Shown here piece by piece: positions 5,810-22,510 of a DNA stretch of 64,000 nt; the first letter of the stretch is position 1; every line of letters starts with the position of its first letter. The translations under genes and the position numbers were made by a program. Under the pieces are notes generated by a model. It did not search any database and was not told where the DNA came from. It saw only the letters and a list, made by a program, of their open reading frames with translations. The stretch is from Lachnospiraceae bacterium (GTDB taxonomy: Bacteria; Bacillota; Clostridia; Lachnospirales; Lachnospiraceae). The stretch covers positions 2,378 to 66,377 of the forward strand of contig JBGVNF010000118.1 of the NCBI GenBank assembly GCA_045125245.1. Reading direction: 5' to 3'.

Positions 5810-6127
5810 ATGGCAAGTCAAGTCATGAGAATCACATTGAAGGCTTACGATCATCAGTTAATCGATCAGTCAGCTGGAAAAATCATCGAAACTGTAAAGA
5901 AGACAGGTGCAAAGGTTAGCGGACCAGTGCCACTTCCAACAAAGAAGGAAGTAGTTACAATTCTTAGAGCCGTTCACAAGTACAAGGATTCTAGAGAGCA
6001 GTTCGAGCAGAGAACTCATAAGAGACTCATCGACATCGTAACACCATCACAGAAGACTGTAGATGCATTATCTAGATTAGAGATGCCAGCTGGTGTTTAC
6101 ATCGATATTAAGATGAAGACAAAGTAG
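5810..6127 (+). CDS. rpsJ: 30S ribosomal protein S10 (uS10)
   Basis: Conserved uS10 sequence (RITLKAYDH...[16 protein letters not shown]); AAGGAGG RBS; first gene of the canonical order. Confidence 0.97.
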
Positions 6128-6135
6128 TTCTTGAC

Positions 6136-6158
6136 CAAAATTTCCAATGGAAATTTTG
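6136..6158. repeat. stop-proximal palindrome CAAAATTTCCA / TGGAAATTTTG
   Basis: Perfect 11-nt arms 9 nt after the rpsJ stop; related CAAAATT...AATTTTG palindromes at 8086-8114, 12779-12805 and 18775-18801. Confidence 0.8.
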
Positions 6159-6397
6159 CTCCAGTATGTAGATTAATAGAAAACATATGGGAGTCAAAAA
6201 CAGAAATGTGCAATCCTGAAGGGTTTAGATATAAAAGCAACACTCATTTTTTATGAGGGAATCAACATTTTGATTTTTTCAATTTAGTGTTCCACGTATA
6301 TTAGACTGTTCTAGGATGTTTTCAAACCTACTTATTATAAGTAAGATTGAAAACCGCTGTAGAAAAGCCAAGCAAATTGGCAAACAGGAGGTAAAAA

Positions 6398-7033
6398 ATG
6401 AAGAAAGCGATTTTAGCAACAAAAGTCGGAATGACTCAAATCTTCAACGAAGATGGTGTGTTAACACCAGTTACTGTACTTCAGGCTGGTCCTTGTGTTG
6501 TTACACAGGTTAAGACAGTTGAAAATGATGGTTACAGTGCAGTTCAGGTTGGTTTTGCTGACAAGAGAGAAAAGCTTGTTAATAAGCCAATGAAAGGACA
6601 TTTTGATAAGGCTGGAGTTTCTTACAAGAGATATGTAAGAGAGTTCAAGTTTGAAAATGCCGAGGAATACTCAGTTAAGGATGAAATCAAGGCTGATATC
6701 TTTGCAGCTGGCGACAAGGTAGACGCTACAGCAATTGCAAAGGGTAAGGGATTCCAGGGCGCAATCAAGAGACATGGTCAGTCAAGAGGACCTATGGCTC
6801 ATGGTTCTAAGTTCCACCGTCATCAGGGTTCTAACGGTGCTTGTTCAAGCCCAAGTAAGGTATTCAAGGGAAAAGGAATGCCAGGTCACATGGGTGCTAA
6901 GAAGATCACAATTCAGAATCTTGAGATCGTTAAAATTGATGCAGACAACAACTTAATTCTTGTTAAGGGCGCAGTTCCAGGACCAAAGAAAGCATTGGTT
7001 ACAATTAAGGAAACTGTTAAGTCTGGCAAGTAA
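6398..7033 (+). CDS. rplC: 50S ribosomal protein L3 (uL3)
   Basis: Conserved uL3 sequence (GMTQIF...KGKGFQG.IKRHG); AGGAGG RBS; operon order. Confidence 0.97.
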
Positions 7034-7058
7034 TTAATTAGGAAGGAGGAACACACAG

Positions 7059-7679
7059 ATGGCAAAGGTATCTGTTTACAATATGGAAGGCAAGCAGGTT
7101 GGTGATATCGAGCTTAATGATGCTGTATTTGGTGTTGAGGTAAACAATCACTTAGTACACATGGCTGTTGTAAATCAGCTTGCAAACAATCGTCAGGGCA
7201 CACAGAGCGCTAAGACACGTTCAGAAGTTAGCGGTGGCGGAAGAAAGCCTTGGAAGCAGAAGGGTACAGGACACGCTAGACAGGGTTCTACAAGATCTCC
7301 ACAGTGGACTGGCGGTGGTATCGTATTTGCTCCAAAGCCAAGAGATTACTCTTTCAAGATGAACAAGAAAGAGAAGCAGTTAGCTCTTAAGTCAGCATTG
7401 ACATCAAGAGTATTAGAGAACAAGTTCATCGTTGTAGATGAAATTAAGTTAGAGGAAGCTAAGACAAAGAAGTTTGCTGAGGCAATGAACAACTTAAAGG
7501 TTTCTAAGGCATTAGTAGTATTAAATACAAACGATGCTAACGTTGTTAGATCAGCAAAGAACATTCCTACAGTTAAGACAGCTTTAACAAATACAATTAA
7601 TGTATACGACATCTTAAAGTACGATACAGTAGTTATTGATAAGGCAGCTGTAGCAACAATCGAGGAGGTGTACGCATAA
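7059..7679 (+). CDS. rplD: 50S ribosomal protein L4 (uL4)
   Basis: Conserved uL4 sequence ([19 protein letters not shown]); RBS; operon order. Confidence 0.97.
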
Positions 7680-7978
7680 TGGCAGACATTAAATACTATG
7701 ATGTAATCCTCAAGCCTGTAATTACAGAGAAGAGCATGAACGATATGAGCGCAAAGAAGTATACATTCTTAGTTCATACAGAAGCTAATAAGGTACAGAT
7801 TAAAGAGGCTGTTGAGAAGATGTTCGAAGGAACAAAGGTAGCAAGCGTTAACACAATGAACATGGACGGCAAGAATAAGAGACGTGGCATGGTTACAGGA
7901 AAGACTGCTAAGACAAAGAAGGCAATCGTTCAGTTAACAGCAGACAGCAAGGACATTGAAATCTTTGAAGGATTATAA
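7679..7978 (+). CDS. rplW: 50S ribosomal protein L23 (uL23)
   Basis: 99-aa uL23-like sequence; start overlaps the rplD stop (TAATG). Confidence 0.96.
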
Positions 7979-8009
7979 AATATAATCGAGAAGAAAAAAT
8001 GTTAGAGTA

Positions 8010-8114
8010 GTTTCATCAGAAAACAATATTGGTGAAACGGTTTGGAGGAAACAGCGAAGCTGGCGAGGCTCCAAACATACAGTAAATTTTGCTAGAAAAC
8101 AATATTAGCAAAAT
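8010..8114 (+). repeat. three-hairpin module upstream of rplB, with two hairpins presenting the identical loop AGAAAACAATATT
   Basis: GTTTCATC/GGTGAAAC stem (8010-8038) with loop 8018-8030; TTTGGAG/CTCCAAA stem (8041-8075); ATTTTGCTA/TAGCAAAAT stem (8086-8114) whose loop holds the same 13-mer at 8094-8106. Confidence 0.8.
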
Positions 8115-8134
8115 AGTTGAAAGGAGATAAAACA

Positions 8135-8977
8135 ATGGGAATTAGAACATATAACCCATATACACCTTCTAGAAGAAATATGACAGGTCTTGATTTCGCA
8201 GAAGTAACAAAGTCAACTCCTGAGAAGTCATTAGTTGTATCATTAAAGAAGAATTCTGGTCGTAACAACCAGGGTAAGATCACAGTTAGACATCGTGGTG
8301 GCGGTGTTAGAAGAAAGTACAGAATCGTTGACTTCAAGAGAAGAAAAGACGATATTCCAGCTACTGTAATTGGTATCGAGTACGATCCAAACAGAACAGC
8401 TAATATAGCATTAATCTGCTACGCAGATGGTGAGAAGGCATACATCTTAGCTCCTAACGGACTTAAGGATGGTATGAAGGTTATGAACGGCGCTAACGCT
8501 GAAATCAAGGTTGGTAACTGCTTACCACTTGAGGCTATTCCAGTTGGTACAGAAGTACACAACGTTGAGTTATACCCAGGCAAGGGTGGACAGTTAGTTC
8601 GTTCAGCAGGTAACTCAGCTCAGCTTATGGCTAAGGAAGGCAAGTATGCTACACTTAGATTACCATCAGGCGAAATGAGAATGGTTCCAGTTGTTTGCCG
8701 TGCAACAATCGGTACAGTTGGTAACATCGAGCACGACTTAGTTAACGTTGGTAAGGCAGGTCGTAAGCGTCATATGGGTATTAGACCTACAGTTCGTGGT
8801 TCTGTTATGAACCCTAATGACCATCCACACGGTGGTGGTGAAGGTAAGACAGGTATTGGTCGTCCAGGTCCATGTACACCTTGGGGTAAACCAGCACTTG
8901 GCTTAAAGACAAGAAAGAAGAACAAGCAGTCTAACAAGCTCATCGTAAGAAGACGCGATGGCAAGAACTTTAAATAA
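8135..8977 (+). CDS. rplB: 50S ribosomal protein L2 (uL2)
   Basis: Conserved uL2 sequence ([12 protein letters not shown]...[15 protein letters not shown]); ATG 8135 chosen over the track start 8117 because AAAGGAG lies 7 nt upstream. Confidence 0.97.
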
Positions 8978-8989
8978 GGAGGATTACCA

Positions 8990-9268
8990 ATGGCTAGATC
9001 ATTAAAAAAAGGTCCATTTGCGGATGCAAGTTTACTTAAGAAAGTAGACGCTATGAACGAGGCTGGACAGAAGTCAGTTATCAAGACTTGGTCAAGACGT
9101 TCAACAATCTTCCCACAAATGGTTGGACATACAATTGCAGTTCACGATGGAAGAAAGCACGTTCCAGTATATGTGACAGAAGACATGGTTGGACACAAGC
9201 TTGGTGAATTCGTTGCTACCAGAACTTTCAGAGGACATGGTAAAGACGATAAGAAGTCAAGACGTTAG
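8990..9268 (+). CDS. rpsS: 30S ribosomal protein S19 (uS19)
   Basis: Conserved uS19 sequence ([10 protein letters not shown]...GHKLGEF..TR.F.GH). Confidence 0.97.
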
Positions 9269-9298
9269 TGGAAAGAAGATTGAAAGGAGGTCACATCC

Positions 9299-9688
9299 AT
9301 GGCAAAAGGACATAGAAGTCAGATAAAGAGAGAAAGAAATGCTAATAAGGACACAAGACCATCAGCAAAACTTTCTTACGCTAGAATTTCAGTACAGAAG
9401 GCATGCTTCGTACTTGATGCAATCAGAGGAAAGGACGTACAGTCTGCACTTGGTATCTTAGCATACAATCCAAGATATGCATCTTCAGTTATAGAGAAAC
9501 TCTTAAAGTCAGCAATCGCAAATGCTGAGAACAACAATGGTATGAACCCAGAAAACCTCTACATTGAAGAGTGTTACGCAAATCAGGGTCCTATCATGAA
9601 GAGAATCAGACCAAGAGCACAGGGTAGAGCTTACAGAATCGAGAAGAGAATGTGTAACTTAACAATAGTGCTCAATGAAAAGAAATAG
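9299..9688 (+). CDS. rplV: 50S ribosomal protein L22 (uL22)
   Basis: uL22-like sequence; operon order; AAGGAGG RBS. Confidence 0.96.
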   Translation: MAKGHRSQIKRERNANKDTRPSAKLSYARISVQKACFVLDAIRGKDVQSALGILAYNPRYASSVIEKLLKSAIANAENNNGMNPENLYIEECYANQGPIMKRIRPRAQGRAYRIEKRMCNLTIVLNEKK

Positions 9689-9710
9689 TTAGCGGAAAGG
9701 AGAACGCGAA

Positions 9711-10382
9711 ATGGGACAGAAAGTTAATCCTCACGGCATAAGAGTCGGCGTTATTAAAGATTGGGATTCAAAGTGGTACGCAGAGGCTGATTTCGCTGAT
9801 AATCTTGTAGAAGATCACAAAATCAGAGAGTACCTTAAGAAGAAGTTATATAGCGCAGGTGTTTCTAAGATTGAAATCGAAAGAACATCTGACAGATGTA
9901 AGGTTATCGTTTACACAGCTAAGCCTGGTGTTGTTATCGGTAAGGGCGGTGCTGAAATCGATAAGTTAAAAGATGAAGTACAGAAGTTATCAGCAATGAA
10001 AGTACTTGTTGATGTTAAAGAAATTAAGAAGCCAGATAGAGATGCTCAGTTAGTAGCAGAGAACATTGCTCTCCAGTTAGAGAACCGTGTTTCTTTCAGA
10101 AGAGCTATGAAGTCAGCAATGGGTAGAACACTCAAGGCTGGTGCTAAGGGTATCAAGGCTGCATGTTCAGGACGTCTTGGTGGAGCTGATATGGCTCGTA
10201 CAGAGTTCTATACAGAAGGAACTATTCCACTTCAGACATTACGTGCTGATATTGATTATGGATTCGCAGAGGCTGATACAACATATGGTAAGGTTGGTAT
10301 CAAGGTTTGGATTTACAATGGTGAAGTTCTTCCTACAAAGGCTGCTGCAAAAGAAGATAGCAAGGAAGGGAGCGATAAATAA
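9711..10382 (+). CDS. rpsC: 30S ribosomal protein S3 (uS3)
   Basis: Conserved uS3 N-terminus [11 protein letters not shown] and KH domain. Confidence 0.97.
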
Positions 10383-10819
10383 TGTTAATGCCAAAGAGAG
10401 TTAAGCGTCGTAAGCAATTCCGTGGAACAATGTCTGGTAAGGCATTAAGAGGTAACAAGATTACTAACGGTGAATATGGTATCGTCGCTATGGAACCAGC
10501 ATGGATAAGATCTAATCAGATCGAAGCTGCCCGTATTGCTATGACACGTTATATCAAGCGTGGTGGTAAGGTTTGGATTAAGATTTTCCCAGATAAGCCA
10601 GTAACTACAAAACCAGCAGAAACAAGAATGGGTTCCGGAAAAGGAACACTCGAGTACTGGGTTGCAGTTGTTAAGCCAGGCAGAGTATTATTCGAGATCT
10701 CTGGTGTAGCTGAAGAAGTAGCTAGAGAAGCTCTTCGTCTCGCAACTCATAAATTACCTGTAAAGTGCAAGATCGTTTCTCGCGCAGATTTAGAAGGCGG
10801 TGATAACAGTGAAAATTAA
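10382..10819 (+). CDS. rplP: 50S ribosomal protein L16 (uL16)
   Basis: Conserved N-terminus [10 protein letters not shown]; start overlaps the rpsC stop. Confidence 0.97.
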
Positions 10820-11015
10820 TAAGTATGTAGAAGATTTAAAGGCAAAATCAGCTGCAGAATTAAATGATGAATTAGTAGCTGCTAAAAAGGAACTTTTCAA
10901 TTTAAGATTCCAGAACGCAACAAACCAGTTGGATAACACAAGCAGAATCAAGGAAGTTAGAAAGAATATCGCAAGAATTCAGACAGTACTTTCAGAGCAG
11001 GCTAAGGCTAACTAG
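10809..11015 (+). CDS. rpmC: 50S ribosomal protein L29 (uL29)
   Basis: uL29-like sequence (ELF.LRFQ.ATNQL.NTSRI..VRK.IARI). GTG 10809 (MKINKY...) preferred over GTG 10800 on RBS spacing; the start is uncertain by 9 nt. Confidence 0.9.
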
Positions 11016-11051
11016 TTGTAAATTGGAAATCTGAGAAAGGAGACATTTGTC

Positions 11052-11306
11052 GTGGAAAGAAATTTAAGAAAAACACGTACCGGTAAGGTAGTAAGTGACA
11101 AGATGGACAAGACAATTGTTGTAGCAGTTCAGGATAACGTAAAGCATCCATTATACAACAAGATTGTTAAGAGAACTTATAAATTAAAGGCTCATGATGA
11201 GAACAACGAGTGCGGTATCGGTGATACTGTAAAGGTTATGGAGACAAGACCATTATCAAGAGATAAGAGATGGAGACTTGTTGAAATCATCGAGAAGGCT
11301 AGATAG
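11052..11306 (+). CDS. rpsQ: 30S ribosomal protein S17 (uS17)
   Basis: uS17-like sequence (R....[13 protein letters not shown]...); GTG start after AAGGAGA. Confidence 0.96.
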
Positions 11307-11324
11307 TAGGAAGGGAGAATTATT

Positions 11325-11693
11325 ATGATTCAACAGGAAAGTAGACTTAAAGTTGCTGATAATACAGGCGCTAAAGAATTACTTTGTATCAGAGTAATGG
11401 GCGGTTCTACTAGAAGATATGCTAATATCGGTGATATCATCGTTGCTTCAGTTAAAGAAGCAACACCAGGCGGTGTTGTAAAGAAGGGCGATGTAGTAAA
11501 GGCTGTAGTAGTTCGTTCCGTTAAGGGCGCTCGTCGTAAGGACGGATCTTATATTAAATTTGATGAGAACGCAGCTGTTATCATCAAAGATGATAAGACA
11601 CCAAAAGGAACACGTATTTTTGGACCAGTTGCAAGAGAGCTTAGAGAGAAGCAGTTCATGAAGATTGTTTCATTAGCTCCAGAAGTATTATAA
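11325..11693 (+). CDS. rplN: 50S ribosomal protein L14 (uL14)
   Basis: Conserved [18 protein letters not shown]-terminus. Confidence 0.98.
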
Positions 11694-11704
11694 GGAGGTT
11701 CCTA

Positions 11705-12016
11705 ATGTCAGCAATGAAGATTAAAAAAGGCGACCTTGTAAAGGTAATCGCTGGTAAGGATAAAGACAAAGAAGGCAAGGTTATCAGTGTAGATCAGAAG
11801 AACGGAAAGGTTCTCGTTGAAGGCGTAAACATGATGACTAAGCACACAAAGCCAAGCGCTGCTAATCAGCAGGGTGGTATCGTTACAGCAGAAGCTCCAA
11901 TCGATGCTTCAAACGTTATGTTAGTTGTAGACGGTAAGGCTACAAGAGTTGGTTTTAAGATGGAAGGCGACAAGAAAGTTCGTTTTGCAAAATCAACAGG
12001 TAAGGTTATTGATTAA
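11705..12016 (+). CDS. rplX: 50S ribosomal protein L24 (uL24)
   Basis: KOW motif [17 protein letters not shown]. Confidence 0.96.
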
Positions 12017-12036
12017 TTAGAGAGGAGGACCGTAAA

Positions 12037-12576
12037 GTGAGCAGACTTAGAGAAACATACAAGAACGAAATCGTAGACGCTATGGCTAAGAAGTTTGGTT
12101 ATGCAAACGTTATGCAGGTACCAAAGCTTGATAAGATCGTTATAAACATGGGTGTTGGTGAAGCTAAGGACAACGCTAAGGTTTTAGACGCAGCAGTTAA
12201 GGATCTTGAGACAATCGCAGGTCAGAAGGCTGTACTTACAAGAGCAAAGAAGTCAATTGCTAACTTCAAGATTAGAGAAGGTTTAGCAATCGGATGTAAG
12301 GTTACTCTTAGAGGTGAGAAGATGTACGAATTCCTCGATAGATTAGTAAACCTTGCACTTCCTCGTGTTCGTGACTTTAGAGGTGTAAACCCTAATTCAT
12401 TTGACGGAAGAGGAAATTACGCTTTAGGTATTAAGGAACAGATCATTTTCCCTGAAATCGAATATGATAAGGTTGATAAAGTAAGAGGTATGGATATCAT
12501 CTTCGTTACAACAGCTAACACAGATGAAGAAGCTCGTGAATTATTGACATTATTCAATATGCCATTTCAGAAGTAA
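12037..12576 (+). CDS. rplE: 50S ribosomal protein L5 (uL5)
   Basis: Conserved uL5 sequence (P.L.KIV.NMGVGEA...RGMDI); GTG start after GAGGAGG. Confidence 0.97.
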
Positions 12577-12591
12577 TTAGGAGGTAAATCC

Positions 12592-12777
12592 ATGGCTAAG
12601 ACAGCAATGAAAGTTAAGCAGTCACGTAAGGCAAAATTTTCAACACAGGAATACTCACGTTGTAGAATTTGTGGACGTCCACACGCTTATTTAAGAAAAT
12701 ACGGAATCTGCAGAATTTGCTTCCGTGAATTAGCATACAAAGGTCAGATCCCAGGTGTTAAGAAAGCATCTTGGTAA
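12592..12777 (+). CDS. rpsZ: 30S ribosomal protein S14, zinc-binding type Z
   Basis: 61 aa with [23 protein letters not shown] (CxxC...CxxC). Confidence 0.97.
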
Positions 12778-12778
12778 A

Positions 12779-12837
12779 GTTCAAAATTGCTAAGCAATTT
12801 TGAACAGCTCGAGCGGGAGCGAGAGCCCCTGCCAAAG
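12779..12837 (+). repeat. intergenic repeat module: palindrome plus TTTTGAACAG-hairpin unit
   Basis: GTTCAAAATTGC/GCAATTTTGAAC palindrome (12779-12805), then GCTC-GAGCGGGAGCGA-GAGC hairpin (12807-26) and CCCCTGCCAAAG; homologous to 18775-18872. Confidence 0.85.
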
Positions 12838-13071
12838 AAAACAATAAATTTTCTGACACGTCAGATGATACTATGACAACATCACAAGTCATCTGACACA
12901 GAAACTCGGTAAGTATGATGGTAAAACCTAGATATGTCGAATTTGCGTTGCAAATTCTCTCACGGCACTTATAAGTTGTATAAGGATATAGGTTTTCTCA
13001 CGAAATTCGCTTTGCGAATTTCGGCCTCGTATACTGCCATTACACAATGTAATCAATAGGAGGAAAAAACA

Positions 13072-13473
13072 ATGGCAATGACAGATCCAATTGCAGATAT
13101 GCTTACAAGAATCCGTAATGCAAATACTGCTAAGCATGACACAGTAGATGTTCCAGCATCTAAGATTAAGTTAGCAATCGCTGAAATTCTTTTAAACGAA
13201 GGTTTCATTAAGAGCTATGAAGTAGTTGAAGATGGTAACTTCAAGACTATCAAGATTACTTTAAAGTATGGTAAGGATAAGACAGAGAAGATCATCACAG
13301 GTCTTAAGAGAATTTCTAAGCCAGGTTTAAGAGTATATGCTGGTAAGGATGAGCTCCCAAGAGTACTTGGTGGACTCGGTATCGCAATCATTTCAACAAA
13401 CAAGGGTATCGTTACAGACAAGGAAGCTAGAAAGCTTCAGGTTGGTGGCGAAGTACTTGCATTTGTTTGGTAG
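13072..13473 (+). CDS. rpsH: 30S ribosomal protein S8 (uS8)
   Basis: Conserved [16 protein letters not shown]-terminal region. Confidence 0.97.
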
Positions 13474-13494
13474 TATTATAAAGGAGGTGCGGGC

Positions 13495-14420: not shown

Positions 14421-14438
14421 TAAGGAGGAAAACAACAA

Positions 14439-14948
14439 ATGAAACATACGATTATTGATGCTAGTCAGTTAGAATTAGAAGAAAAAGTAGTTAACATCAA
14501 GCGTGTAACTAAGGTTGTTAAGGGTGGTCGTCACTTCAGATTTGCAGCTTTAGTAGTTGTTGGAGACGGCAAAGGTCACGTAGGTGCAGGTTTAGGCAAG
14601 GCAATGGAAATTCCTGAAGCTATTCGTAAGGGTAAAGAAGACGCTATGAAGAAGCTCGTTGAGGTTCCAATTGATGCAAACAACAGTATTCCTCATGATT
14701 TAGTAGGAAACTTTGGTAGTGCTTCAGTTTTACTTAAGAGAGCTCCAGAAGGTACTGGTATTATCGCTGGTGGTCCTGCTCGTAATGTATTAGAGCTTGC
14801 AGGTATCAAGAATATCCGTACAAAGTCATTAGGTTCAAACAATAAGCAGAACGTAGTTTTAGCTACAATTAAGGGCTTATCTGAATTAAAGACTCCTGAA
14901 GAAGTTGCTAAGCTTCGCGGTAAATCTGTTGAAGAGATATTAGGCTAA
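14439..14948 (+). CDS. rpsE: 30S ribosomal protein S5 (uS5)
   Basis: uS5-like sequence (V..I.RV.KVVKGGR.F.F.A.VVVGD..G.VG.G.GKA). Confidence 0.97.
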
Positions 14949-14964
14949 TAGGAGGTAATGTAAA

Positions 14965-15147
14965 ATGGCAGATAAGTTAAAGATTACATTAGTTAAATCA
15001 CCAATTGGTGCGGTTCCAAAGCATGTTAAGACAGTTGAAGCTTTAGGCTTAAAGAAGCTTAACAAGTCAGTAGAAATGCCTGATAACGCAGCAACAAGAG
15101 GAATGATTCAGCAGGTAAGACATTTAGTTAAAGTTGAAGAAATCTAA
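14965..15147 (+). CDS. rpmD: 50S ribosomal protein L30 (uL30)
   Basis: 60 aa, L.ITLVKS.IG......T..ALGL.K pattern. Confidence 0.95.
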
Positions 15148-15170
15148 TGAATAAATAAGGAGGTGCAGTG

Positions 15171-15611
15171 ATGAATTTATCAAATTTACAGCCAGCAGAT
15201 GGCTCAAAGCATAATGATAACTTCAGAAGAGGACGTGGCCACGGTTCAGGTAACGGTAAGACAGCTGGTAAGGGTCACAAGGGTCAGAAGGCACGTTCAG
15301 GAGCTACAAGACCAGGTTTTGAAGGTGGTCAGATGCCTTTATATAGAAGAATTCCTAAGAGAGGTTTCACAAACAGAAACACTCTTGAGATTATCGGTAT
15401 CAACGTAAGCGCTCTTGAAGCTTTCGAGGCTGGTTCAGAGGTAACAGTTGAAACTCTCATTGAGGCTGGTATCGTAAAGAACCCAAGAGACGGCGTTAAG
15501 ATTCTTGGTAACGGTGAACTTACAAAGAAGCTTACAGTTAAAGCAAATGCTTTCTCAGCAGGCGCTAAGGAAAAAATCGAAGCTGTTGGTGGAACTTGCG
15601 AGGTGATCTAA
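15171..15611 (+). CDS. rplO: 50S ribosomal protein L15 (uL15)
   Basis: uL15-like sequence (GRG.GSG.GKT.G.GHKGQ.ARSG); ATG 15171 preferred over GTG 15168 on AAGGAGGTG spacing. Confidence 0.96.
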
Positions 15612-16975
15612 TGTTTAAGACATTTAAGAACGCACTCAAAGTTAAAGAGATAAGACAAAAGCTTTTATATACTTTCATAATGATGGTAATTGTCCGTATC
15701 GGATGTCAGCTCCCAATTCCGGGAACAAGTCAGTCAGCTATCCAGTCAGTAATGGGTAGCTTGGCTGCAAGTGACGCATATAGCTTTTTCAGTGCTTTCA
15801 CAGGTGGTTCATTAGAAAAAATGTCGGTGTTTGCTCTTAGTATTACACCATATATTACATCTTCAATTATTATGCAGCTTTTAACAATAGCTATTCCAAA
15901 GCTTGAAGAGATGCAGAATGAAGGCGAATCAGGAAGAAAGAAAATTCAGGAGATTACAAGATATGTTACAGTAGCTCTTGCAGTTGTTGAATCAATTGCT
16001 ATGGCAATTGGTTTTGGTAACCAGGGAGTATTTGGTAATGTAAAAGCAATGTCTGGTATGAGATATTTCTTCACAATGTTTACAGTAGTTGTAACAATGA
16101 CAGCTGGTTCTGCTGTACTTATGTGGATCGGTGAAAGAATTACTGAGAAGGGTGTTGGTAACGGTATATCAGTCATCCTTATGATTAATATTATTGCAAG
16201 AATTCCAAGTGACCTTTATGCATTATATGTAACAAAGGTTCAGATTACAGAGACTAATGGACGTTCTCTTGGTGGTGCTGCATTAGCTGCATTTATCATT
16301 GTATTCGTTATCGTTGCAATGATAGCATTTGTAGTTGCATTACAGGCTGCTCAGAGAAAGATTCCAGTACAGTACGCTAAGAAGGTACAGGGAAGACAGA
16401 TGGTTGGTGGCAATTCAAGCCATATTCCATTAAAGGTTAATACAGCCGGTGTAGTTCCAGTTATCTTCGCTTCATCATTAATGCAGTTCCCAATCATTAT
16501 CGCATCAATGTTTGGCAAGGCTGCTGGTTATGGATCAGTTGGAGGTACAATCCTTAAGGTATTAAATTCAGGTTCATGGTTTAATACAAAGAGCCTTAAG
16601 GAGTTTGCATTTACAGGTGGATTTGTTCTTTATGCAATCCTCGTAATCGCATTTGCATACTTCTATACATCAATTACTTTCAACCCAATTGAGGTTGCTA
16701 ATAATATGAAGAAGTCAGGTGGCTTTATCCCTGGTATCAGACCTGGTAAGCCAACAGAAGAATACTTAACAAGAATATTGAATTATGTCGTATTCATCGG
16801 AGCAATCGCATTATTAATTATTGCAGGACTTCCAATTGTATTCTCAGGTGTATTTAGTGCGAGTGTATCATTTGCAGGTACTTCATTAATCATCGTAGTA
16901 GGTGTTATACTTGATTGTATAGCAAAGATTGAATCTATGATGGTAGTTCGTAACTATAAAGGATTTTTAGGCTAA
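15611..16975 (+). CDS. secY: preprotein translocase subunit SecY
   Basis: 10-TM SecY sequence; ATG 15611 (MFKTF...) overlaps the rplO stop as TAATG, with GAGGTGA RBS; the track start 15596 lies inside rplO. Confidence 0.96.
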   Translation: MFKTFKNALKVKEIRQKLLYTFIMMVIVRIGCQLPIPGTSQSAIQSVMGSLAASDAYSFFSAFTGGSLEKMSVFALSITPYITSSIIMQLLTIAIPKLEEMQNEGESGRKKIQEITRYVTVALAVVESIAMAIGFGNQGVFGNVKAMSGMRYFFTMFTVVVTMTAGSAVLMWIGERITEKGVGNGISVILMINIIARIPSDLYALYVTKVQITETNGRSLGGAALAAFIIVFVIVAMIAFVVALQAAQRKIPVQYAKKVQGRQMVGGNSSHIPLKVNTAGVVPVIFASSLMQFPIIIASMFGKAAGYGSVGGTILKVLNSGSWFNTKSLKEFAFTGGFVLYAILVIAFAYFYTSITFNPIEVANNMKKSGGFIPGIRPGKPTEEYLTRILNYVVFIGAIALLIIAGLPIVFSGVFSASVSFAGTSLIIVVGVILDCIAKIESMMVVRNYKGFLG

Positions 16976-17003
16976 TAATAGCCGTTGCAATTAAACATAA
17001 TAG

Positions 17004-17035
17004 CCCGCGGCATTGTACCGCGGGTTAGTGTGTTT
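17004..17035 (+). terminator. possible weak terminator or processing hairpin after secY
   Basis: CCCGCGG/CCGCGGG GC-rich stem followed by an interrupted T-run (TTAGTGTGTTTT). Confidence 0.4.
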
Positions 17036-17122
17036 TAGTAAATCGCAGTTGAAAGTCGACTATGATTCAGTTTATTACAATAAAAAAACTATAGAAAAAT
17101 ATTAATGTTAGGAGGAAAGTAT

Positions 17123-17764
17123 ATGAAGATTATTATGTTAGGTGCTCCTGGTGCTGGAAAAGGTACACAGGCTAAGATGCTTGCTGATAAGTATATGATT
17201 CCACATATCTCAACAGGAGATATTTTTAGAGCAAATATTAAGAATGGTACAGAGCTTGGTCAGAAGGCTAAGACATATATGGATCAGGGACTTTTAGTTC
17301 CAGATGAGCTTGTATGTGATTTGGTTGTAGATAGAGTTCAGCAGGAGGATTGTAAGGAAGGTTACATCCTTGACGGTTTCCCAAGAACTATTCCACAGGC
17401 AGAAGCTTTAGATGCAGCTCTTGCAAATATCGGCTCAAAGATTGACTATGCTGTAAACGTTGAGGTTCCAGATGAGAACATCGTAAACAGAATGTCAGGT
17501 AGAAGAGCTTGTGTTGCATGTGGTGCAACATATCATATAGTACACAGCCCTACAAAAGAAGAGGGTATCTGTGATAGATGTGGTAAGGAGTTAATCGTAA
17601 GAGAAGACGACAAGCCAGAGACAGTTACAAAGCGTTTAAATGTATATCATGAGCAGACACAGCCATTAATCGACTACTACACAAAGCAGGGTGCTTTAAA
17701 AGAGGTTGATGGAACAATGAACATGGACGAAGTATTTAACGCTATCGTTAATATTTTAGGCTAA
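17123..17764 (+). CDS. adk: adenylate kinase (zinc-lid type)
   Basis: P-loop GAPGAGKGT; lid CVACG...CDRCG; ATG 17123 follows the AGGAGG RBS. Confidence 0.97.
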
Positions 17765-17786
17765 GCAGGTCCTGGAGGATATAGAT

Positions 17787-18536
17787 ATGGTTTCTATAAA
17801 ATCTCAAAGCGAAATTGCTCTTATGAGAGAGGCAGGAAAGATTCTTGCTAAGGTTCATGAGGAACTTAAAGATGCTATTAGACCTGGAATGTCTACATTA
17901 GACATTGATAGACTTGGCGAAAAAATCATCCGTGGATATGGATGTATTCCTTCATTTTTAAATTATAATGGCTATCCTGCTTCAATCTGTGTCTCAGTAA
18001 ATGATGAAGTGGTACACGGAATTCCTCATAAGGATCATATACTTTATGAAGGAGATATAGTTAGTCTTGATGCGGGAGTTATCTACAAGGGATATCATGC
18101 TGATGCAGCAAGAACATACGGAGTAGGTAAAATCAGTGATGAAGCAGCGAAACTTATAGAAGTTACAAAGCAAAGCTTTTTTGAAGGAATTAAAATGGCA
18201 AAAGATGGTAATCATTTACATGACATATCAAATGCAATTGCAGATTACTGTGAGAGCTTTGGTTATGGAGTGGTAAGGGATTTGGTAGGCCATGGAATAG
18301 GTAAAAACTTACACGAAGACCCACAGATTCCAAACTTCCATCAGAGAAGAAGAGGAATTAAGCTTCAGAAGGGAATGACACTTGCTATCGAACCAATGGT
18401 AAACGCAGGAACATATGAAGTTGCTTGGTTGGATGATGATTGGACAGTTGTTTCCGATGATGGTTCATTATCAGCTCACTACGAGAATACAATTCTTATT
18501 ACAGACGGTGAGCCAGAGATTTTAACAATTCTTTAA
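17787..18536 (+). CDS. map: type I methionine aminopeptidase
   Basis: MetAP-I metal ligand context (VHGIP...D.G....Y..D..RT...GHG.G...HE). Confidence 0.96.
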   Translation: MVSIKSQSEIALMREAGKILAKVHEELKDAIRPGMSTLDIDRLGEKIIRGYGCIPSFLNYNGYPASICVSVNDEVVHGIPHKDHILYEGDIVSLDAGVIYKGYHADAARTYGVGKISDEAAKLIEVTKQSFFEGIKMAKDGNHLHDISNAIADYCESFGYGVVRDLVGHGIGKNLHEDPQIPNFHQRRRGIKLQKGMTLAIEPMVNAGTYEVAWLDDDWTVVSDDGSLSAHYENTILITDGEPEILTIL

Positions 18537-18555
18537 TAGATGGAGGTTTTAGAAT

Positions 18556-18774
18556 ATGGCAAAGACAGACGTTATTGAAATAGAAGGAACAGTATTAGAG
18601 AAGTTACCTAATGCAATGTTCAAGGTAGAGTTAGAGAACGGTCATCAGGTTTTCGCACATATCAGCGGAAAGCTTCGTATGAATTTCATCCGAATCATTC
18701 CAGGTGATAAGGTTACAATAGAACTTTCACCATACGACTTATCAAAAGGCAGAATAGTATGGAGAGATAAATAA
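18556..18774 (+). CDS. infA: translation initiation factor IF-1
   Basis: 72 aa with the conserved MAK.DVIE.EG.V.E.LPNAMF.V.LENGH pattern. Confidence 0.97.
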
Positions 18775-18872
18775 GTTCAAAGTTTCGTAGAAACTTTGAA
18801 CAGTCCGAACGGAAGTGAGGACCCCCGCCAAAATTTTGAACAGTCCGAACGGAAGTGAGGACCCTAGCCAAG
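18775..18872 (+). repeat. intergenic repeat module: palindrome plus two tandem TTTGAACAGTCCGAACGGAAGTGAGGACCC units
   Basis: GTTCAAAGTTTC/GAAACTTTGAAC palindrome (18775-18801). Units sit at 18795-18832 and 18834-18872, each with a GTCC-GAACGGAAGTGA-GGAC hairpin. Confidence 0.9.
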
Positions 18873-18917
18873 GATTCCGAGTGTTATAATAAATTTGTAA
18901 ATTCTGTAAATTAGTAC

Positions 18918-18946
18918 TTGCAATTTGACAAATGCTATGTTACTAT
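18918..18946 (+). promoter_or_regulatory. candidate internal promoter ahead of rpmJ
   Basis: TTGCAA, 17 nt, TACTAT (overlapping TATAAT at 18944-18949); shares the 12-mer AGTACTTGCAAT with the rpsJ promoter. Confidence 0.5.
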
Positions 18947-18981
18947 AATACTCGGACTTTTTTTGAAAGGAGGATTTTACT

Positions 18982-19095
18982 GTGAAGGTTAGATCATCAG
19001 TTAAACCAATTTGCGAAAAATGCAAAATCATTAAGAGAAAAGGAAGCATTAGAGTAATCTGTGAAAATCCAAAGCACAAGCAGAGACAGGGCTAA
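18982..19095 (+). CDS. rpmJ: 50S ribosomal protein L36 (bL36)
   Basis: Not in the ORF track because it is too short. GTG start after AAAGGAGG; translates to [37 protein letters not shown] (37 aa, zinc-ribbon CxxC...C...H). Confidence 0.95.
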
Positions 19096-19394
19096 TTATA
19101 TAGCGTCTTTGTGATGTAATCGCGGTTGTAAAACAACTACGGTTATATTTGTATGCGGCTGCAGCGATGGAACACCAGGATGCGTGTGACTATAATACTC
19201 TCAATTAGGAGCACGAGAAATGATGGGAAATTGCTTAACTATAAACGGAATTGTACTTATATAAGAAGAATTCCTCACATTGAGAAGAAGCGTTGGGCTA
19301 CGCACACATTTCAGACGTTCATTGAACGGGCTGCGCAAGTAATGGTTCTTTATTACTATTTAATTAAGAATATTTTGATGGAGGTGTAATACAC
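19096..19394 (+). promoter_or_regulatory. 299-nt spacer/leader upstream of rpsM with nested inverted repeats
   Basis: TCTCAAT (19199-19205) / ATTGAGA (19279-19285) enclose GGAATT (19247-52) / AATTCC (19269-74); a TATAAT sits at 19191-19196; function not established. Confidence 0.3.
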
Positions 19395-19763
19395 ATGGCT
19401 CGTATTTCAGGTGTAGACTTACCAAGAGAAAAGCGTATTGAAATCGGATTAACTTACATTTACGGTATCGGTAGAGTAACAGCTACAAAGATTCTTGAAG
19501 CTGCTGGCGTAAATCCAGATACACGTGTTAGAGACTTAACAGATGATGAAGTTAAGAAGATTAGTGCTGTAATCGATGAGAATCACACTGTAGAAGGTGA
19601 TTTAAGAAGAGAAATCATCATGAACATCAAGAGATTACAGGAAATCGGATGCTACAGAGGTATCCGTCATAGAAAGGGACTTCCAGTTCGTGGTCAGAAG
19701 ACAAAGACAAACGCTAGAACAAGAAAAGGTCCTAAGAAGACAGTTGCTGGTAAGAAGAAATAA
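19395..19763 (+). CDS. rpsM: 30S ribosomal protein S13 (uS13)
   Basis: Conserved [23 protein letters not shown]-terminus. Confidence 0.97.
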
Positions 19764-19866
19764 GTTTAATAAACTTATGACAGCTTAGTATGTGAAAAAT
19801 CGCATACATTATTATAATGAAACAAATAACGAAAAATTAGATACCCATAAGGGAGGTTAGTTTAAA

Positions 19867-20259
19867 ATGGCTAAAGTTACAAAGAAAGTGACAAAAAAGC
19901 GTGTAAAGAAAAACGTTGAACGCGGACAGGCACATATTCAGGCATCTTTCAACAATACAATTGTTACATTAACAGATGCTGAAGGTAATGCATTATCTTG
20001 GGCAAGTGCTGGTGGTCTAGGATTTAGAGGTTCAAAGAAATCTACTCCTTATGCAGCTCAGATGGCAGCAGAAACTGCTACTAAGGCAGCTTTAGTGCAC
20101 GGCTTAAAGTATGTAGATGTAATGGTTAAGGGACCAGGTTCAGGAAGAGAAGCAGCAATTCGTGCTCTCTCAGCTTGCGGTCTTGAAGTAACAAGTATTA
20201 AGGACGTTACTCCAGTTCCACATAACGGATGTCGCCCACCAAAGCGTAGAAGAGTCTAA
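19867..20259 (+). CDS. rpsK: 30S ribosomal protein S11 (uS11)
   Basis: uS11-like sequence ([17 protein letters not shown]...W.S.G..GF.GS.KSTP.AAQ). Confidence 0.97.
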
Positions 20260-20280
20260 TCTAATAGGAGGTGCAGATAA

Positions 20281-20874
20281 ATGGCAGTAAATAGAGTTCC
20301 AGTTCTTAAAAGATGTAGATCACTTGGTTTGGATCCTATCTATTTAGGAATCGACAAGAAGTCAAATAGAGAATTAAAGAGAGCAAATAAGAAGATCAGC
20401 GAGTACGGTCTTCAGTTAAGAGAAAAGCAGAAGGCTAAATTCATCTATGGTGTATTAGAGAAGCCTTTCAGAAATTTATTTGAGAAGGCTCAGAAGATGC
20501 AGGGTCGTTCAGGTGAAAACCTTATGACACTCCTTGAGCTTAGACTTGATAACGTAATTTTCCGTTTAGGATATGCTAGAACAAGAAAAGAAGCTAGACA
20601 GATCGTTGACCACAAGCACGTATTAGTAAACGGCAAGTGTGTAAACATCCCTTCATACCTTGTTAAGGCTGGCGATGTTATCGAAATTAAGGAAAAGAAT
20701 AGAGATTCTCAGAGATATAAGGATATCCTCGAAGTAACAGAAGGAAGACTTGTTCCAGAGTGGCTTGAGGCTGATCATGATAACTTCAAGGGTTCTGTTA
20801 AGCAGGTACCTACAAGAGATATCATTGATGTTCCTGTGGACGAAATGCTTATCGTCGAGTTATATTCTAAGTAA
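20281..20874 (+). CDS. rpsD: 30S ribosomal protein S4 (uS4)
   Basis: uS4 sequence with S4 RNA-binding domain (LE.RLDNV.FR.G.A.TR..ARQ.V.H.H..VNG). Confidence 0.97.
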
Positions 20875-20906
20875 TTCGATTAATCCAAAGAAGGAGGGGC
20901 TTTACA

Positions 20907-21866
20907 GTGTTCGATTTTGAGAAACCAAATATTGAGATTGTAGAAATCTCAGAAGACAAGAAATATGGTAAGTTTGTTGTTGAACCACTTGAAAGAGGAT
21001 ATGGTACAACACTTGGTAATTCTTTAAGAAGAATTATGCTTTCCTCATTACCAGGCGCTGCTGTTAGCCAGGTTAAGATTGAGGGCGTTCTTCATGAGTT
21101 TACATCAATTCCTGGAGTAAAGGAAGATGTAACAGAGATTATCATGAATCTTAAGAGCTTATCTATTAAGAATAACAGCGAAACAAATGAACCTAAAGTA
21201 GCATACATCGAATTCAGCGGTGAAGGTGTTGTAACAGCAGCAGATATTCACGCAGACGCTGATATTGAGATATTAAATCCTGATTTGGTTATTGCTACAC
21301 TTAATGGTGGCGCAGATAGCAAATTGTACATGGAACTTACTATCACAAAGGGTAGAGGCTATGTAAGTGCTGATAAGAATAAGAATGATGATTTACCAAT
21401 CGGTGTTATCGCCGTTGATTCAATCTACACTCCAGTTGAGAGAGTGAACTTATCTATTCAGAACACACGTGTAGGTCAGATTACTGACTACGATAAGCTT
21501 ACATTAGATGTATACACAAATGGTACATTAGCTCCAGACGAGGCTGTTTCTTTAGCAGCTAAGGTATTAAGCGAGCATTTAAGCTTATTCATTGATCTTT
21601 CTGAAATCGCAGACAAGGCTGATGTCATGGTTGAGAAGGAAGAAAGCGAAAAGGAAAAAGTTTTAGAGATGAACATTGATGAGTTAGAATTATCAGTTCG
21701 TTCATACAACTGCTTAAAGAGAGCAGGTATCAATACTGTAGAAGAGCTTACAAATAAGACTTCAGAAGATATGATGAAGGTTAGAAACTTAGGCCGTAAG
21801 TCACTTGAAGAAGTACTTGCAAAGCTTAAGGAGTTAGGCTTACAGTTAAAGGCAGGAGACGAGTAA
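20907..21866 (+). CDS. rpoA: DNA-directed RNA polymerase alpha subunit
   Basis: N-terminal dimerisation domain (GYG.TLGN.LRR.LLSS.PG.A) and C-terminal domain (LELSVRS.NCLK.AGI.TV.EL); GTG start after GGAGGGG. Confidence 0.97.
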
Positions 21867-21973
21867 TCGTTCCACGTGCATATAATGTACGTTAAAGTAA
21901 TTTATGGAAATAGATGTTCAGATAGTAAGACCAAAGGGCATTCTGAAGATCCCACAAATGGAGGTAAAATAAA

Positions 21974-22510
21974 ATGGCTGGATATAGAAAGCTTAGTAGA
22001 GAAACATCAGTAAGAAAGGCATTAATCAGAGCACAGGTAACAAGCTTACTTGAGCATGGTAAGATCCGCACAACAGAAGCTAAGGCTAAGGAAATCCGTA
22101 AGGAAGTTGAGCACTTAATCGCACTTGCAGTTAAGGAAAAGGATAACTTCGAGGAAGTAACAGTTAAGGCTAAGGTTGCTAAGAAGGATGCTGATGGCAA
22201 GAGAGTTAAAGAAGTAGTAGACGGTAAGAAGGTTACAGTTTACGAAGAAGTTGAGAAGACAATTAAGAAGGATCTTCCTTCAAGACTTCATGCTAGAAGA
22301 CAGATGAACAAGGTTCTTTACACAGTAAAGGAAGTTCCAACAGATGCTGCTGGTAAGAAGAGAAACACAAAGGTTGTTGACTTAACAGATAAGTTATTCA
22401 ATGAATATGCTCCAAAGTATGCAAATCGTAAGGGTGGTTACACAAGAATCGTGAAGATCGGCCTTAGAAAAGGTGATGCAGCTATGGAAGTTCTCATCGA
22501 GTTAGTTTAA
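21974..22510 (+). CDS. rplQ: 50S ribosomal protein L17 (bL17) with a long internal insertion
   Basis: N-terminal (GYRKL.R....R.AL.R......L..HG.I.TT..KAKE.R) and C-terminal (R.GGYTRI.K.G.R.GD.A..V.IELV) bL17 blocks are separated by a K/E/V-rich segment; total 178 aa. Confidence 0.93.
   Translation: MAGYRKLSRETSVRKALIRAQVTSLLEHGKIRTTEAKAKEIRKEVEHLIALAVKEKDNFEEVTVKAKVAKKDADGKRVKEVVDGKKVTVYEEVEKTIKKDLPSRLHARRQMNKVLYTVKEVPTDAAGKKRNTKVVDLTDKLFNEYAPKYANRKGGYTRIVKIGLRKGDAAMEVLIELV

Follow-up and report, generated by a model that had tools for sequence, protein, structure and literature searches.

Long junctions of the S10-spc-alpha ribosomal protein cluster in a Lachnospiraceae bacterium hold candidate gene-proximal RNA leaders and strain-variable hairpin cassettes

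To our knowledge, autoregulation of ribosomal protein (r-protein) synthesis is known in detail almost only in Escherichia coli and partly in Bacillus; the genes of the S10, spc and alpha operons in E. coli and Bacillus subtilis overlap or are set a few to a few tens of nucleotides (nt) apart. Hairpin repeats such as the repetitive extragenic palindromes and bacterial interspersed mosaic elements (REP/BIME) of enterobacteria and BOX of Streptococcus pneumoniae occur in tens to hundreds of copies over the whole genome and in both orientations, and a REP within ~15 nt of a stop codon in E. coli stalls terminating ribosomes and lowers the expression of the upstream gene. The described systems closest to the locus reported here are the autoregulatory r-protein leaders, namely those of E. 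coli (S8 in the spc operon, S10/L4, and S4 in the alpha operon), the Rfam family S10-Clostridia and the r-leaders that Eckert and Weinberg reported in 2020 (PMC7247131), and two leader families have so far been described in the S10-spc-alpha cluster of Clostridia: S10, and S4 ahead of rpsM (PMC7247131). Also comparable is the cip-cel operon of Ruminiclostridium cellulolyticum, a long and highly expressed operon of Clostridia with intergenic stem-loops, which are proposed to set the stoichiometry of the cistrons on one transcript (PMC10311766). Here, we have analyzed a stretch of 64,000 nt (the window) from a Lachnospiraceae bacterium (GenBank assembly GCA_045125245.1, contig JBGVNF010000118.1), where the r-protein cluster from rpsJ (position 5810) to rplQ (22510) has the canonical gene order as judged by open reading frames (ORFs), Shine-Dalgarno (SD) sites, start codons and synteny, and contains several long and structured spacers.

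An earlier note made from the sequence of the window alone had reported eight long spacers in this cluster, and all eight lengths were reproduced from ORFs, SD sites and synteny: rpsJ-rplC (270 nt), rplW-rplB (156 nt), rpsZ-rpsH (294 nt), secY-adk, infA-rpmJ (207 nt), rpmJ-rpsM (299 nt), rpsM-rpsK (103 nt) and rpoA-rplQ (107 nt). The secY-adk spacer is 147 nt with the adk start at 17123, which has a good SD site, and 129 nt with an upstream ATG at 17105; the remaining junctions of the cluster measure -20 to 36 nt. For the comparison with related genomes that the note had proposed, we used 80 further metagenome loci with S8 58-88% identical, which split into 33 near relatives (S8 72-88% identical) and 47 more distant ones; in the syntenic relatives, the cluster genes have the expected Pfam families. 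Seven junctions distinguish the two groups:

rpsJ-rplC, median 158 nt in near and 42 nt in distant relatives
rplW-rplB, median 112 nt in near and 25 nt in distant relatives
rpsH-rplF, median 98 nt in near and 26 nt in distant relatives
secY-adk, median 144 nt in near and 13.5 nt in distant relatives
infA-rpmJ, median 155 nt in near and 27 nt in distant relatives
rpmJ-rpsM, median 348 nt in near and 23 nt in distant relatives
rpoA-rplQ, median 191 nt in near and 21.5 nt in distant relatives

At the remaining junctions, neither group has long spacers. Long spacers at fixed junctions are hence a clade trait, and core blocks are conserved across genera. Since the medians of the near relatives are also long, the spacers are not peculiar to the genome of the window, and since they recur in both RNA and DNA contigs of many samples, they are no assembly artefact.

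Strains of the same species were represented by 19 contigs retrieved via the exact S10 and S13 proteins (look-ups with the exact L17 and IF1 proteins gave no match), among which the strains L004-L011 are 97-100% identical to the window in DNA. L003 is a somewhat more distant relative; the DNA compared in this way comprised the 64-kb window and loci of at most 20 kb each. The window has a G+C content of ~36%, and its sequence occurs chiefly in metagenomes of bovine, rumen and gut origin. When the same-species strains were aligned, the spacers proved to be two-layered: the side of the downstream gene is nearly invariant, and the side of the upstream stop codon varies by insertions and deletions, with the variable part beginning 0-5 nt after the stop. 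The length thus ranges among the strains from 205 to 270 nt at rpsJ-rplC, from 131 to 188 nt at rplW-rplB, from 164 to 398 nt at rpsZ-rpsH and from 580 to 767 nt between infA and rpsM. Against dinucleotide shuffles, the minimum free energy of the four spacers that bear the hairpin modules described below gave z values of -5.5, -5.1, -5.5 and -4.5, compared with -3.1 for secY-adk and -1.6 to -2.0 for rpmJ-rpsM, rpsM-rpsK and rpoA-rplQ. The spacers are not one repeat family; indeed, the modules that the earlier note took to be common to all eight are absent from secY-adk, rpmJ-rpsM, rpsM-rpsK and rpoA-rplQ. We regard it as probable, if only modestly so, that the long junctions represent a clade-specific, two-layered organization, in which autoregulatory leaders are combined with cis-acting hairpin cassettes.

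On the side of the downstream genes, the following elements were found ahead of rplC, rplB, rpsM and rplQ:

6212..6397, + strand, candidate leader of rplC (the L3-L4-L23 block): AUCCUGAAGGG...CUAGGAUG, a hairpin at 6318-6354, CCGCUGUAGA, a variable hairpin at 6367-6381, and AACAGGAGG
8010..8038, + strand, hairpin L2a with the 11-nt loop GAAAACAAUAU, also present in L006 and L010
8086..8134, + strand, rplB-proximal element: hairpin L2b (8086-8114) with the loop of L2a, then the SD of rplB
19096..19394, + strand, rpsM leader with the blocks AUGCGGCUGCAGCG (19153-19166), CUAUAAUACUC (19190-19200) and GCACACAUUUCAG (19302-19314)
21917..21973, + strand, candidate leader of rplQ (L17): hairpin UUCAGA-UAGUAAGACCAAAGGGCAU-UCUGAA with the bracketed part as the loop, then CCCACAAAUGGAGG

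The blocks AUCCUGAAGGG, CUAGGAUG, CCGCUGUAGA and AACAGGAGG of the rplC leader recur in the window, L003, L014, L022, L023 and L040, and partly in L041. In the consensus fold of six genera-level sequences by RNAalifold, five pairs of the central hairpin, which lies between CUAGGAUG and CCGCUGUAGA, are compensatory, and UCCUG is paired with CAGGA of the SD; in L003, a hairpin like module A (see below) takes the place of the variable hairpin. Ahead of rplB, L2a and L2b have an identical loop on different stems, and a hairpin with the GAAAACAAUAU loop and covarying stems adjoins the SD in 10 of 10 strains and in L003; other genera have a hairpin, then GAUAAUAAAACA, then GAAAGGAG at this place. The 8-mer AAAACAAU occurs at 8021-8028 and 8097-8104 in the hairpin loops and again at 8129-8136, between the rplB SD and the start codon, and the loops therefore display a copy of the rplB initiation region. 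The three rpsM blocks are common to the window, L022, L023, L037 and L041, and CUAUAAUACUC is possibly the -10 element of a second promoter. In the rplQ element, the loop UAAG(U/A)CCAAAGNGC and the tail CCACAAAUGGAGG are kept in L022, L023, L041 and both copies of L037, on stems that differ but are complementary. The hairpins of rplB, rpsH (described next) and rplQ end 6-40 nt before the SD.

These elements are untranslated, lie directly upstream of an r-protein gene, are co-transcribed with it (contigs across rplW-rplB and rpoA-rplQ) and, for rplC, rplB and rplQ, are conserved across species with compensatory changes in 6-10 sequences. Such conservation across genera, together with covarying helices and predicted pairing to the SD, is a signature of functional leaders, promoters and terminators, and from their sequences, the gene-proximal cores look like autoregulatory leaders. 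They share with the described r-protein leaders a structured RNA directly upstream of the gene, conservation within a lineage, covarying helices, predicted pairing to the SD (rplC) and, at rpsH, mimicry of the rRNA site of the encoded protein, and S10-Clostridia itself is present at 5584-5666; in contrast to those leaders, the elements of the window lie inside the cluster and not at its 5' end, belong to no family of Rfam 15, and have candidate ligands. Indeed, a search of Rfam 15 in 5000-23000 of the window at E up to 5 gave nothing besides RF03136 upstream of rpsJ, the internal spacers of L023, L033, L037 and L097 had no match at E up to 1, and the published S4 leader family of Clostridia (PMC7247131) did not match the rpsM leader.

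The gene-proximal part of the rpsZ-rpsH spacer holds a hairpin with a candidate binding site of S8:

12850..12905, + strand, hairpin with the candidate S8 site: GAUG-AUACU (12864-12872) and AAGU-CAUC (12886-12893)
12901-12914, + strand, second motif GAAACU-CGG-UAAGU
13033..13071, + strand, rpsH-proximal core, almost unchanged in every strain and in L003: hairpin AUUACA-CAA-UGUAAU plus the SD

The comparison with the rRNA, which was made for rpsH, used the sequence of E. coli 16S rRNA around 588-651. The hairpin holds the equivalents of A640, U641, A642, C643, U644, A595, A596, G597 and U598, flanked by a 9-base-pair (bp) helix, and thus resembles the rRNA site; these nucleotides define the S8 site in helix 21 (h21) of 16S rRNA (PMC4176348). 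The E. coli S8 operator is located at rplE, unlike the site in the window, which lies ahead of rpsH and closes its hairpin on the side of the motif opposite to the rRNA helix. The S8-like hairpin is kept in 9 of 9 strains, whatever else varies in rpsZ-rpsH. Furthermore, L048, an unrelated locus with an S8 69% identical, has a hairpin at 4390-4410 (AAGU-GGGG-AAGG-CCUC-AUACU), whose S8-site nucleotides follow the rRNA order and which lies 24 nt upstream of rpsH. Judged from sequence, S8 is the best-supported candidate ligand among the leaders; L3 or L4, L2, S4 or S13, and L17 would be guesses by position for the others.

On the side of the stop codons, the spacers contain cassettes composed of a few hairpin modules (P, A, B, C and D):

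6132..6195, + strand, AT-rich two-hairpin insert of 64 nt right after the rpsJ stop (hairpins 6136-6158 and 6159-6193)
8040..8076, + strand, free-standing module B: GUUUGGAG-GAAA-(CAGC GAA GCUG)-GCGAGG-CUCCAAAC
12779..12838, + strand, rpsZ-rpsH cassette: P (12779-12805), A (12807-12826; GCUC-GA-GC-GGGA-GC-GA-GAGC) and the tail CCCCUGCCAAAG
12923..13037, + strand, variable module D: AT-rich hairpins (12939-12957 and 13001-13023) around a 45-nt center
18775..18872, + strand, infA cassette: P (18775-18801), A (18803-18822) and a second 40-nt unit with A (18843-18862)

Immediately behind the stop codon stands module P, an AT-rich hairpin of 12 bp. Its two copies in the window differ by compensatory changes and are part of a 60-nt repeat (family D1) of which there are three copies, and the pattern TTTGAACAGNNCGARCGGRAGYGAG has three matches with none expected. 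Module A follows P after the linker A with the consensus GYYY-GA-RC-GGRA-GY-GA-RRRC, then CCCnnGCCAA. Among its 13 distinct copies, 97% of the cells are paired and four of six pairs show a compensatory change, with the tandem GA/GA mismatches and the GGRA (GNRA) loop fixed. The consensus of module B is RUUYGGAG-GRAR-(stem-GAA-stem)-nnnGAGG-CUCCRAAY; across its ten distinct copies, pairing of the outer stem is complete (100%) and three of its eight pairs show compensatory changes, and the inner stems are all different and all complementary. Module B stands free or sits within the GNRA loop of A, lengthening the helix, and the larger module C likewise inserts in this loop. In simple, un-nested copies, near-pairs are G·U on the sense strand and not A·C. 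The fixed non-canonical motifs within covarying stems and the sense-strand G·U pairs therefore point to selection for particular hairpins.

Of the motifs proposed in the earlier note, the GAGCGG/GAAGCG purine loops are real and form the core of modules A and B. The proposed stop-proximal palindromes are only in part one family: 12779-12805 and 18775-18801 are truly related, 6136-6158 is only loosely similar, and 8086-8114, of opposite polarity (ATTTTGCTA...TAGCAAAAT), is part of a different element. Likewise, the motif AGAAAACAATAT is exact only at 8018 and 8094, where it forms the loops of two hairpins whose stems differ; at 12836, one position is mismatched and the copy is not kept among the strains, and at 6178 there is a deletion (five matches with at most one mismatch in the window, 1.46 expected). 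As for the choice between a repeat and functional RNA, each option fits one layer, namely a functional signature near the genes and a small module family near the stops.

Several likenesses of the modules were considered and set aside. With regard to the kink-turn (K-turn), the GA/GA of module A is symmetric with no 3-nt bulge, and the internal loop of B has no GA next to a canonical stem in the K-turn register. A generic regular expression of the form stem-GA-stem-loop-stem-GA-stem was unspecific (16 short-loop matches in the window against a shuffle mean of 6.7 and maximum of 13; 84 nested-type matches against 83), and the window matches beyond the three true copies of A look like chance. 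One variant of A resembles CCGAAC(AC)GGAAGU and the 3' end of Bacillus 5S rRNA; this likeness was not adopted, and AAC/GU covaries with AGC/GC as a hairpin, which is unexpected of loop C in 5S rRNA. Domain IV of the signal recognition particle RNA, boxA of the rrn operons and the GGA sites of CsrA resemble the modules superficially, and the supposed boxA positions vary freely between copies. A purine grammar common across genera was also rejected: 81 spacers of other relatives showed no enrichment of 5-mers and a coding-like purine content.

The cassettes are the part of the locus that changes. Compared with the window, L004-L011 have no insertion or deletion over 8.7 kb of genes and short spacers, but 64-234 nt of differences in the three long S10/spc spacers, and infA-rpmJ also differs. 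These changes are clean insertions, deletions, duplications and replacements between strains ~98% identical. For example, the 64-nt insert at 6132-6195 is present in the window, L004 and L009 and cleanly absent from L005-L008, L010 and L011, RNA contigs show the form that skips it, and the indel has no target-site duplication and a terminal inverted repeat of at most 4 nt. The 12779-12838 cassette is absent or replaced in other strains; module D is full, partial or absent by strain as a nested deletion series; and the infA cassette contains a single A, a pair of A, a different P, or an A with module C as its cap, with a tandem 40-nt duplication in the window. Junctions also share units: AGTCCGAACGGAAGTGAGGACCCTAG, an A sequence, occurs at rplW-rplB (L007), rpsZ-rpsH (L005 and L011) and infA-rpmJ (window), and the P of L095 at infA differs from the window P at rpsZ by one loop base. 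In L001, which is another species, two A units lie between rplJ and rplL and two B units follow the rplL stop before the terminator; the latter therefore cannot be part of a downstream leader.

In ~0.95 Mb of fetched DNA, all copies lie on the sense strand of the operon, at rplW-rplB, rpsZ-rpsH and infA-rpmJ, and in one other species at rplJ-rplL and the 3' end of rplL. BLAST with all cassette types against the window (47 kb of other sequence) and the strain loci with their flanks gave no copy elsewhere on either strand. The strict, P-linked pattern of P and A was found once each in 2 of 185,579 species genomes, both of which are labelled in GTDB as Lachnospiraceae metagenome-assembled genomes, and the depth of metagenome unitigs suggests ~2-4 copies per genome. 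Module A was absent from 2.9 million viral contigs, and 42 matches of a loose pattern of B equal the estimated chance level; a phage or mobile origin was rejected. Like REP/BIME and BOX, the cassettes are short imperfect palindromes of few module types in mosaic arrays, variable in number and polymorphic between strains, transcribed with their neighbors and open to insertions in loops, and like the REP near stop codons in E. coli, they place a stable hairpin 0-5 nt after the upstream stop. Unlike those repeats and miniature inverted-repeat transposable elements, they are few rather than dispersed in many copies, all in sense rather than in both orientations or inverted pairs, and located only after translation genes.

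Some related elements were noticed in passing. A second stop-proximal family, which starts with GCCGAAAGCAACUUA(A/G)YGA... and has stems separated by GA/GA, occurs in L033, L023, L024, L027, L031, L041 and L042; L033 has near-identical 100-nt copies at rpsZ-rpsH and rpsH-rplF, and relatives in other genera lie at rplW-rplB and rpsH-rplF. L092 has, in its rpmJ-rpsM spacer, a two-hairpin element of ~120 nt (CAAATTTTCTACGAAAATTTG ... CAAAATTTTCTACGAAAATTTTG) that resembles module D and interrupts the otherwise invariant rpsM leader. The fusA-tuf spacer of the str operon shows the same kind of strain polymorphism, with a 140-nt stop-proximal insert rich in GAGGAAGAAGCGAAGCGAA in L005 (4259-4400) and L008 and none in L006. 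Downstream of tuf (L005 5766-5978; L006 5586-5884), a composite palindromic element encloses the tuf terminator; its long-range arms are GCAACGAGCC.../...GGCUCGUUGC, its purine-rich hairpin (CGAGCGAGGAAAUGCGAAGCAUUUUCGAG) has a GAA loop, and the element is duplicated in L006. After the rplL terminator in L001 (5606-5680 and 5780-5825) and the tuf terminator in L003 (~6900-6952) lies the repeat TTGTATAGGAAAGTT..GAAACTTTCCTATACAATAAAAATAAGATGAGCACTCGCACGAGAAGAAA; the copies in L001 flank ~120 nt of GC-richer, possibly structured sequence with no Rfam match.

RNA abundance was examined in four rumen metatranscriptomes as assembled Logan contigs matched at 99% identity, the depth of which is a crude measure of abundance and which carry no information on RNA ends; a search with the relative L023 yielded solely raw-read runs labelled as host. 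The transcription signals are as follows:

5538..5566, + strand, cluster promoter read from the sequence: TTGCAA, 17 nt, TAAACT, with an A/T-rich stretch upstream
5584..5666, + strand, S10-Clostridia leader RF03136 (92.6 bits, E 9e-18), also in L023 and L033
17001..17040, + strand, partial terminator after secY by terminator scan: GC-rich hairpin, then a U-rich tract; kept in nine strains
18918..18946, + strand, internal promoter before rpmJ by promoter scan: TTGCAA, 17 nt, TACTAT (alternatively TTGACA, 16 nt, AATACT)
19788..19817, + strand, hairpin and A/U-rich tract after rpsM, terminator-like in the scan; pairing survives changes in L097
22540..22600, + strand, cluster terminator: 20-bp inverted repeat, 95% complementary, then a T run

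RNA contigs run from gene through spacer to gene at rplW-rplB, secY-adk and rpoA-rplQ, and the spacers therefore belong to the mRNA. Steps of abundance are seen in the four samples at secY-adk, infA-rpmJ, rpsM-rpsK and rpoA-rplQ and after rplQ. Contig depth falls ~2-4 fold from secY to adk-map-infA (43-121 across runs), and one RNA contig covers 16892-17148 from secY through the spacer to adk. In bins of the four samples, depth rises ~6-16 fold past 18832, where 45 nt ahead of rpmJ (18888-18932) are 76% identical to 5508-5552 at the cluster promoter and share the same AGTACTTGCAAT -35. Depth doubles again over rpsM, falls ~2.5 fold from rpsM to rpsK, and is ~2x higher in rplQ than in rpoA contigs; past the cluster terminator, it drops ~10-20 fold in bins and ~100 fold between single contigs (X19). 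In X19, contig depth is ~230-345 from rplD to rpsE, 121 in map-infA, 550 in rpoA-rplQ and 4.6 downstream of rplQ. The features of an intrinsic terminator are thus partly present at 17001-17040, strong at 22540-22600 and weak at 19788-19817, and the P, A, B and L2 hairpins have no U tract. A terminator at infA-rpmJ, in which a long-range helix surrounds the rpmJ promoter, was predicted in the window but is not conserved in L002 and is not claimed. In the 5' untranslated region between the S10-Clostridia leader and rpsJ, RNA variants skip 55-57 nt (5676-5734) and 13 nt (5767-5781), which is a strain polymorphism there too.

We propose that a transcription unit of ~17 kb is divided by untranslated, highly structured spacers into blocks of translation and regulation. 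In the layer that adjoins the downstream gene, the RNA leaders ahead of rplC, rplB, rpsH, rpsM and rplQ would serve as operators, and a protein of the following block would most likely bind and repress translation, either by stabilizing a fold that reaches the SD or through mimicry of rRNA. This layer would also include the partial secY terminator, the rpmJ promoter, perhaps an rpsM promoter, the rpsM hairpin and the final terminator of rplQ, with the internal promoter and the leaky terminators setting the differing RNA levels of adk-map-infA, rpmJ-rpsM and rplQ. Right after the upstream stop, the second layer would consist of cassettes of the self-contained hairpin modules P, A, B, C and D, renewed by tandem duplication, deletion, nesting and ectopic exchange between junctions. 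If the cassettes act at all, we infer that they do so in cis in the RNA, where, as stable hairpins that fold independently, they may insulate the leader from terminating ribosomes or cap the upstream cistron.

Several points weigh against this proposal. The taxonomy of the metagenome relatives, which are unlabelled, was inferred from S8 identity, and the cross-genus spacer alignments are small (6-8 sequences). The S8-like hairpin of the window is confined to one species-level cluster and absent in L003; as a looser form of its pattern occurs 174 times in 1.9 Mb, which amounts to ~0.03 per 300 nt by chance, the hairpin is a good candidate and not proof. Cassettes can be missing altogether, as in the rpsZ-rpsH spacer of L007 and in one RNA contig that skips 12779-12832, and none is therefore essential. 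The earlier note had regarded flat read coverage, with no RNA ends at the modules, as evidence against its finding; apart from the steps described above, depth is indeed roughly flat across rplW-rplB and rpsZ-rpsH, where the unique contigs on either side are similar (232, 241, 270, 266 and 345 in X19), and the cassettes are therefore without visible effect on the mRNA level. Finally, the operon is probably co-oriented with replication, and a strand-specific DNA mechanism could also yield sense-only copies.

The last two points would suit cassettes that are selfish or neutral hairpin repeats of the REP/BIME, BOX or IS200/IS605-derived kind, spreading by single-strand transposition, slippage or ectopic gene conversion and persisting where long spacers tolerate them, an explanation that we think unlikely and yet by no means negligible. 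It would also account for the variation in presence and copy number between strains ~98% identical, the tandem 40-nt duplication, the near-identical P or A units at different junctions (as in L095 and the window) and the nesting of modules in the loops of others; some insertion sequences are known to insert in REP loops. The idea of a colonizing repeat put forward in the earlier note is thus borne out insofar as, in a single species, the modules are duplicated, become nested and change junctions. Such a repeat would nonetheless be atypical, given the low copy number, the sense strand only, and the lack of copies in the other 47 kb of the window, the strain flanks and the viral contigs, with no inverted pairs and neither terminal inverted repeats nor target duplication at the 64-nt indel. 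Moreover, homogenization of palindromes would erase the G·A/A·G mismatches and the asymmetric loop of B, which are fixed amid covarying pairs, and the near-pairs of un-nested copies are G·U rather than A·C. We hence favor the view that the cassettes are cis-acting RNA hairpins rather than selfish DNA.

Hairpins under selection might instead be binding sites of one trans-acting protein, which could be an endoribonuclease, an r-protein or some further RNA-binding protein, for example of the L7Ae kind, and would punctuate or co-regulate the operons of the translation apparatus, with A and B as recognition hairpins of a dedicated regulon; we judge this rather improbable. It is in line with the invariant GA/GA, the GNRA or GAA loops and the GAAR/NNAGAGG internal loop inside covarying helices, and with the location of the modules only after translation genes in two species and five kinds of junction. 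The hairpins of L033, L023, L024 and L042 share the stem-GA/GA-stem grammar at similar sites, but this look is anecdotal because the 81 spacers of other genera have no shared 5-mers. Zero to three copies per junction within one species are odd for a tuned operator, the missing 3-nt bulge speaks against a K-turn, and the mRNA level does not visibly change at rplW-rplB and rpsZ-rpsH. Intergenic stem-loops of a Clostridia operon act as endonuclease signals and stabilizers in cip-cel, where cleavage sites and effects on stability were measured (PMC10311766), compared with contig depth only in the window; unlike those stem-loops, the cassettes are a strain-variable repeat family with conserved non-canonical motifs. 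We consider it very improbable that the spacers are ordinary boundaries of several independent operons with hairpins as terminators. A real promoter precedes rpmJ and terminator-like hairpins follow secY and rpsM, but the P, A, B and L2 hairpins have no U tract, RNA contigs pass through three of the spacers, depth is flat from rplD to rpsE, and promoter-like sites in the S10/spc spacers are in no excess (46 against 49.7 expected from shuffles).

Further observations concern other parts of the locus and the window. In relatives, the spc operon has gaps of 1460 nt at rpmD-rplO (L040) and 712 nt at rplO-secY (L083), which may be insertions or unrecognized genes. L17 of the window (21974-22510) has 178 amino acids with a lysine- and glutamate-rich insertion in the middle of the protein, is of the same length in all strains and is ~50-60 amino acids longer than L17 of E. 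coli or B. subtilis. On the minus strand, two full-length TwoAYGGAY RNAs (RF01731) lie 4.5 kb apart at 53060-53227 and 57773-57938 (132 and 130 bits), each with a perfect 10-bp hairpin (53156-53178 and 57868-57890).

Returning to the two-layered organization, the cassettes provide a natural experiment, since cassette content is all that sets strains of one species apart, and such natural pairs allow the effect of a cassette to be read on RNA ends, stability and protein stoichiometry. Even if neutral, the cassettes are the fastest-changing sites in an otherwise frozen locus and could be used for strain typing. As a speculation to which we would give little credence at present, Lachnospiraceae might possess a small, dedicated system of nestable hairpin modules, with fixed tandem G·A pairs in the stems and GNRA or GAA loops as caps, located only after the stops of translation genes, exchanged between junctions and read by an RNA-binding protein or ribonuclease that punctuates or co-regulates these operons; if so, the modules would mark a regulon in RNA structure while evolving like a mobile element. 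In conclusion, our results suggest that a major family of gut and rumen bacteria has rebuilt its r-protein cluster with at least four or five internal leaders, none of which is in Rfam and which include a candidate S8 operator ahead of rpsH; these leaders would be targets for studies of protein-RNA interaction, for genome annotation and for the tuning of expression in anaerobes that are hard to engineer.

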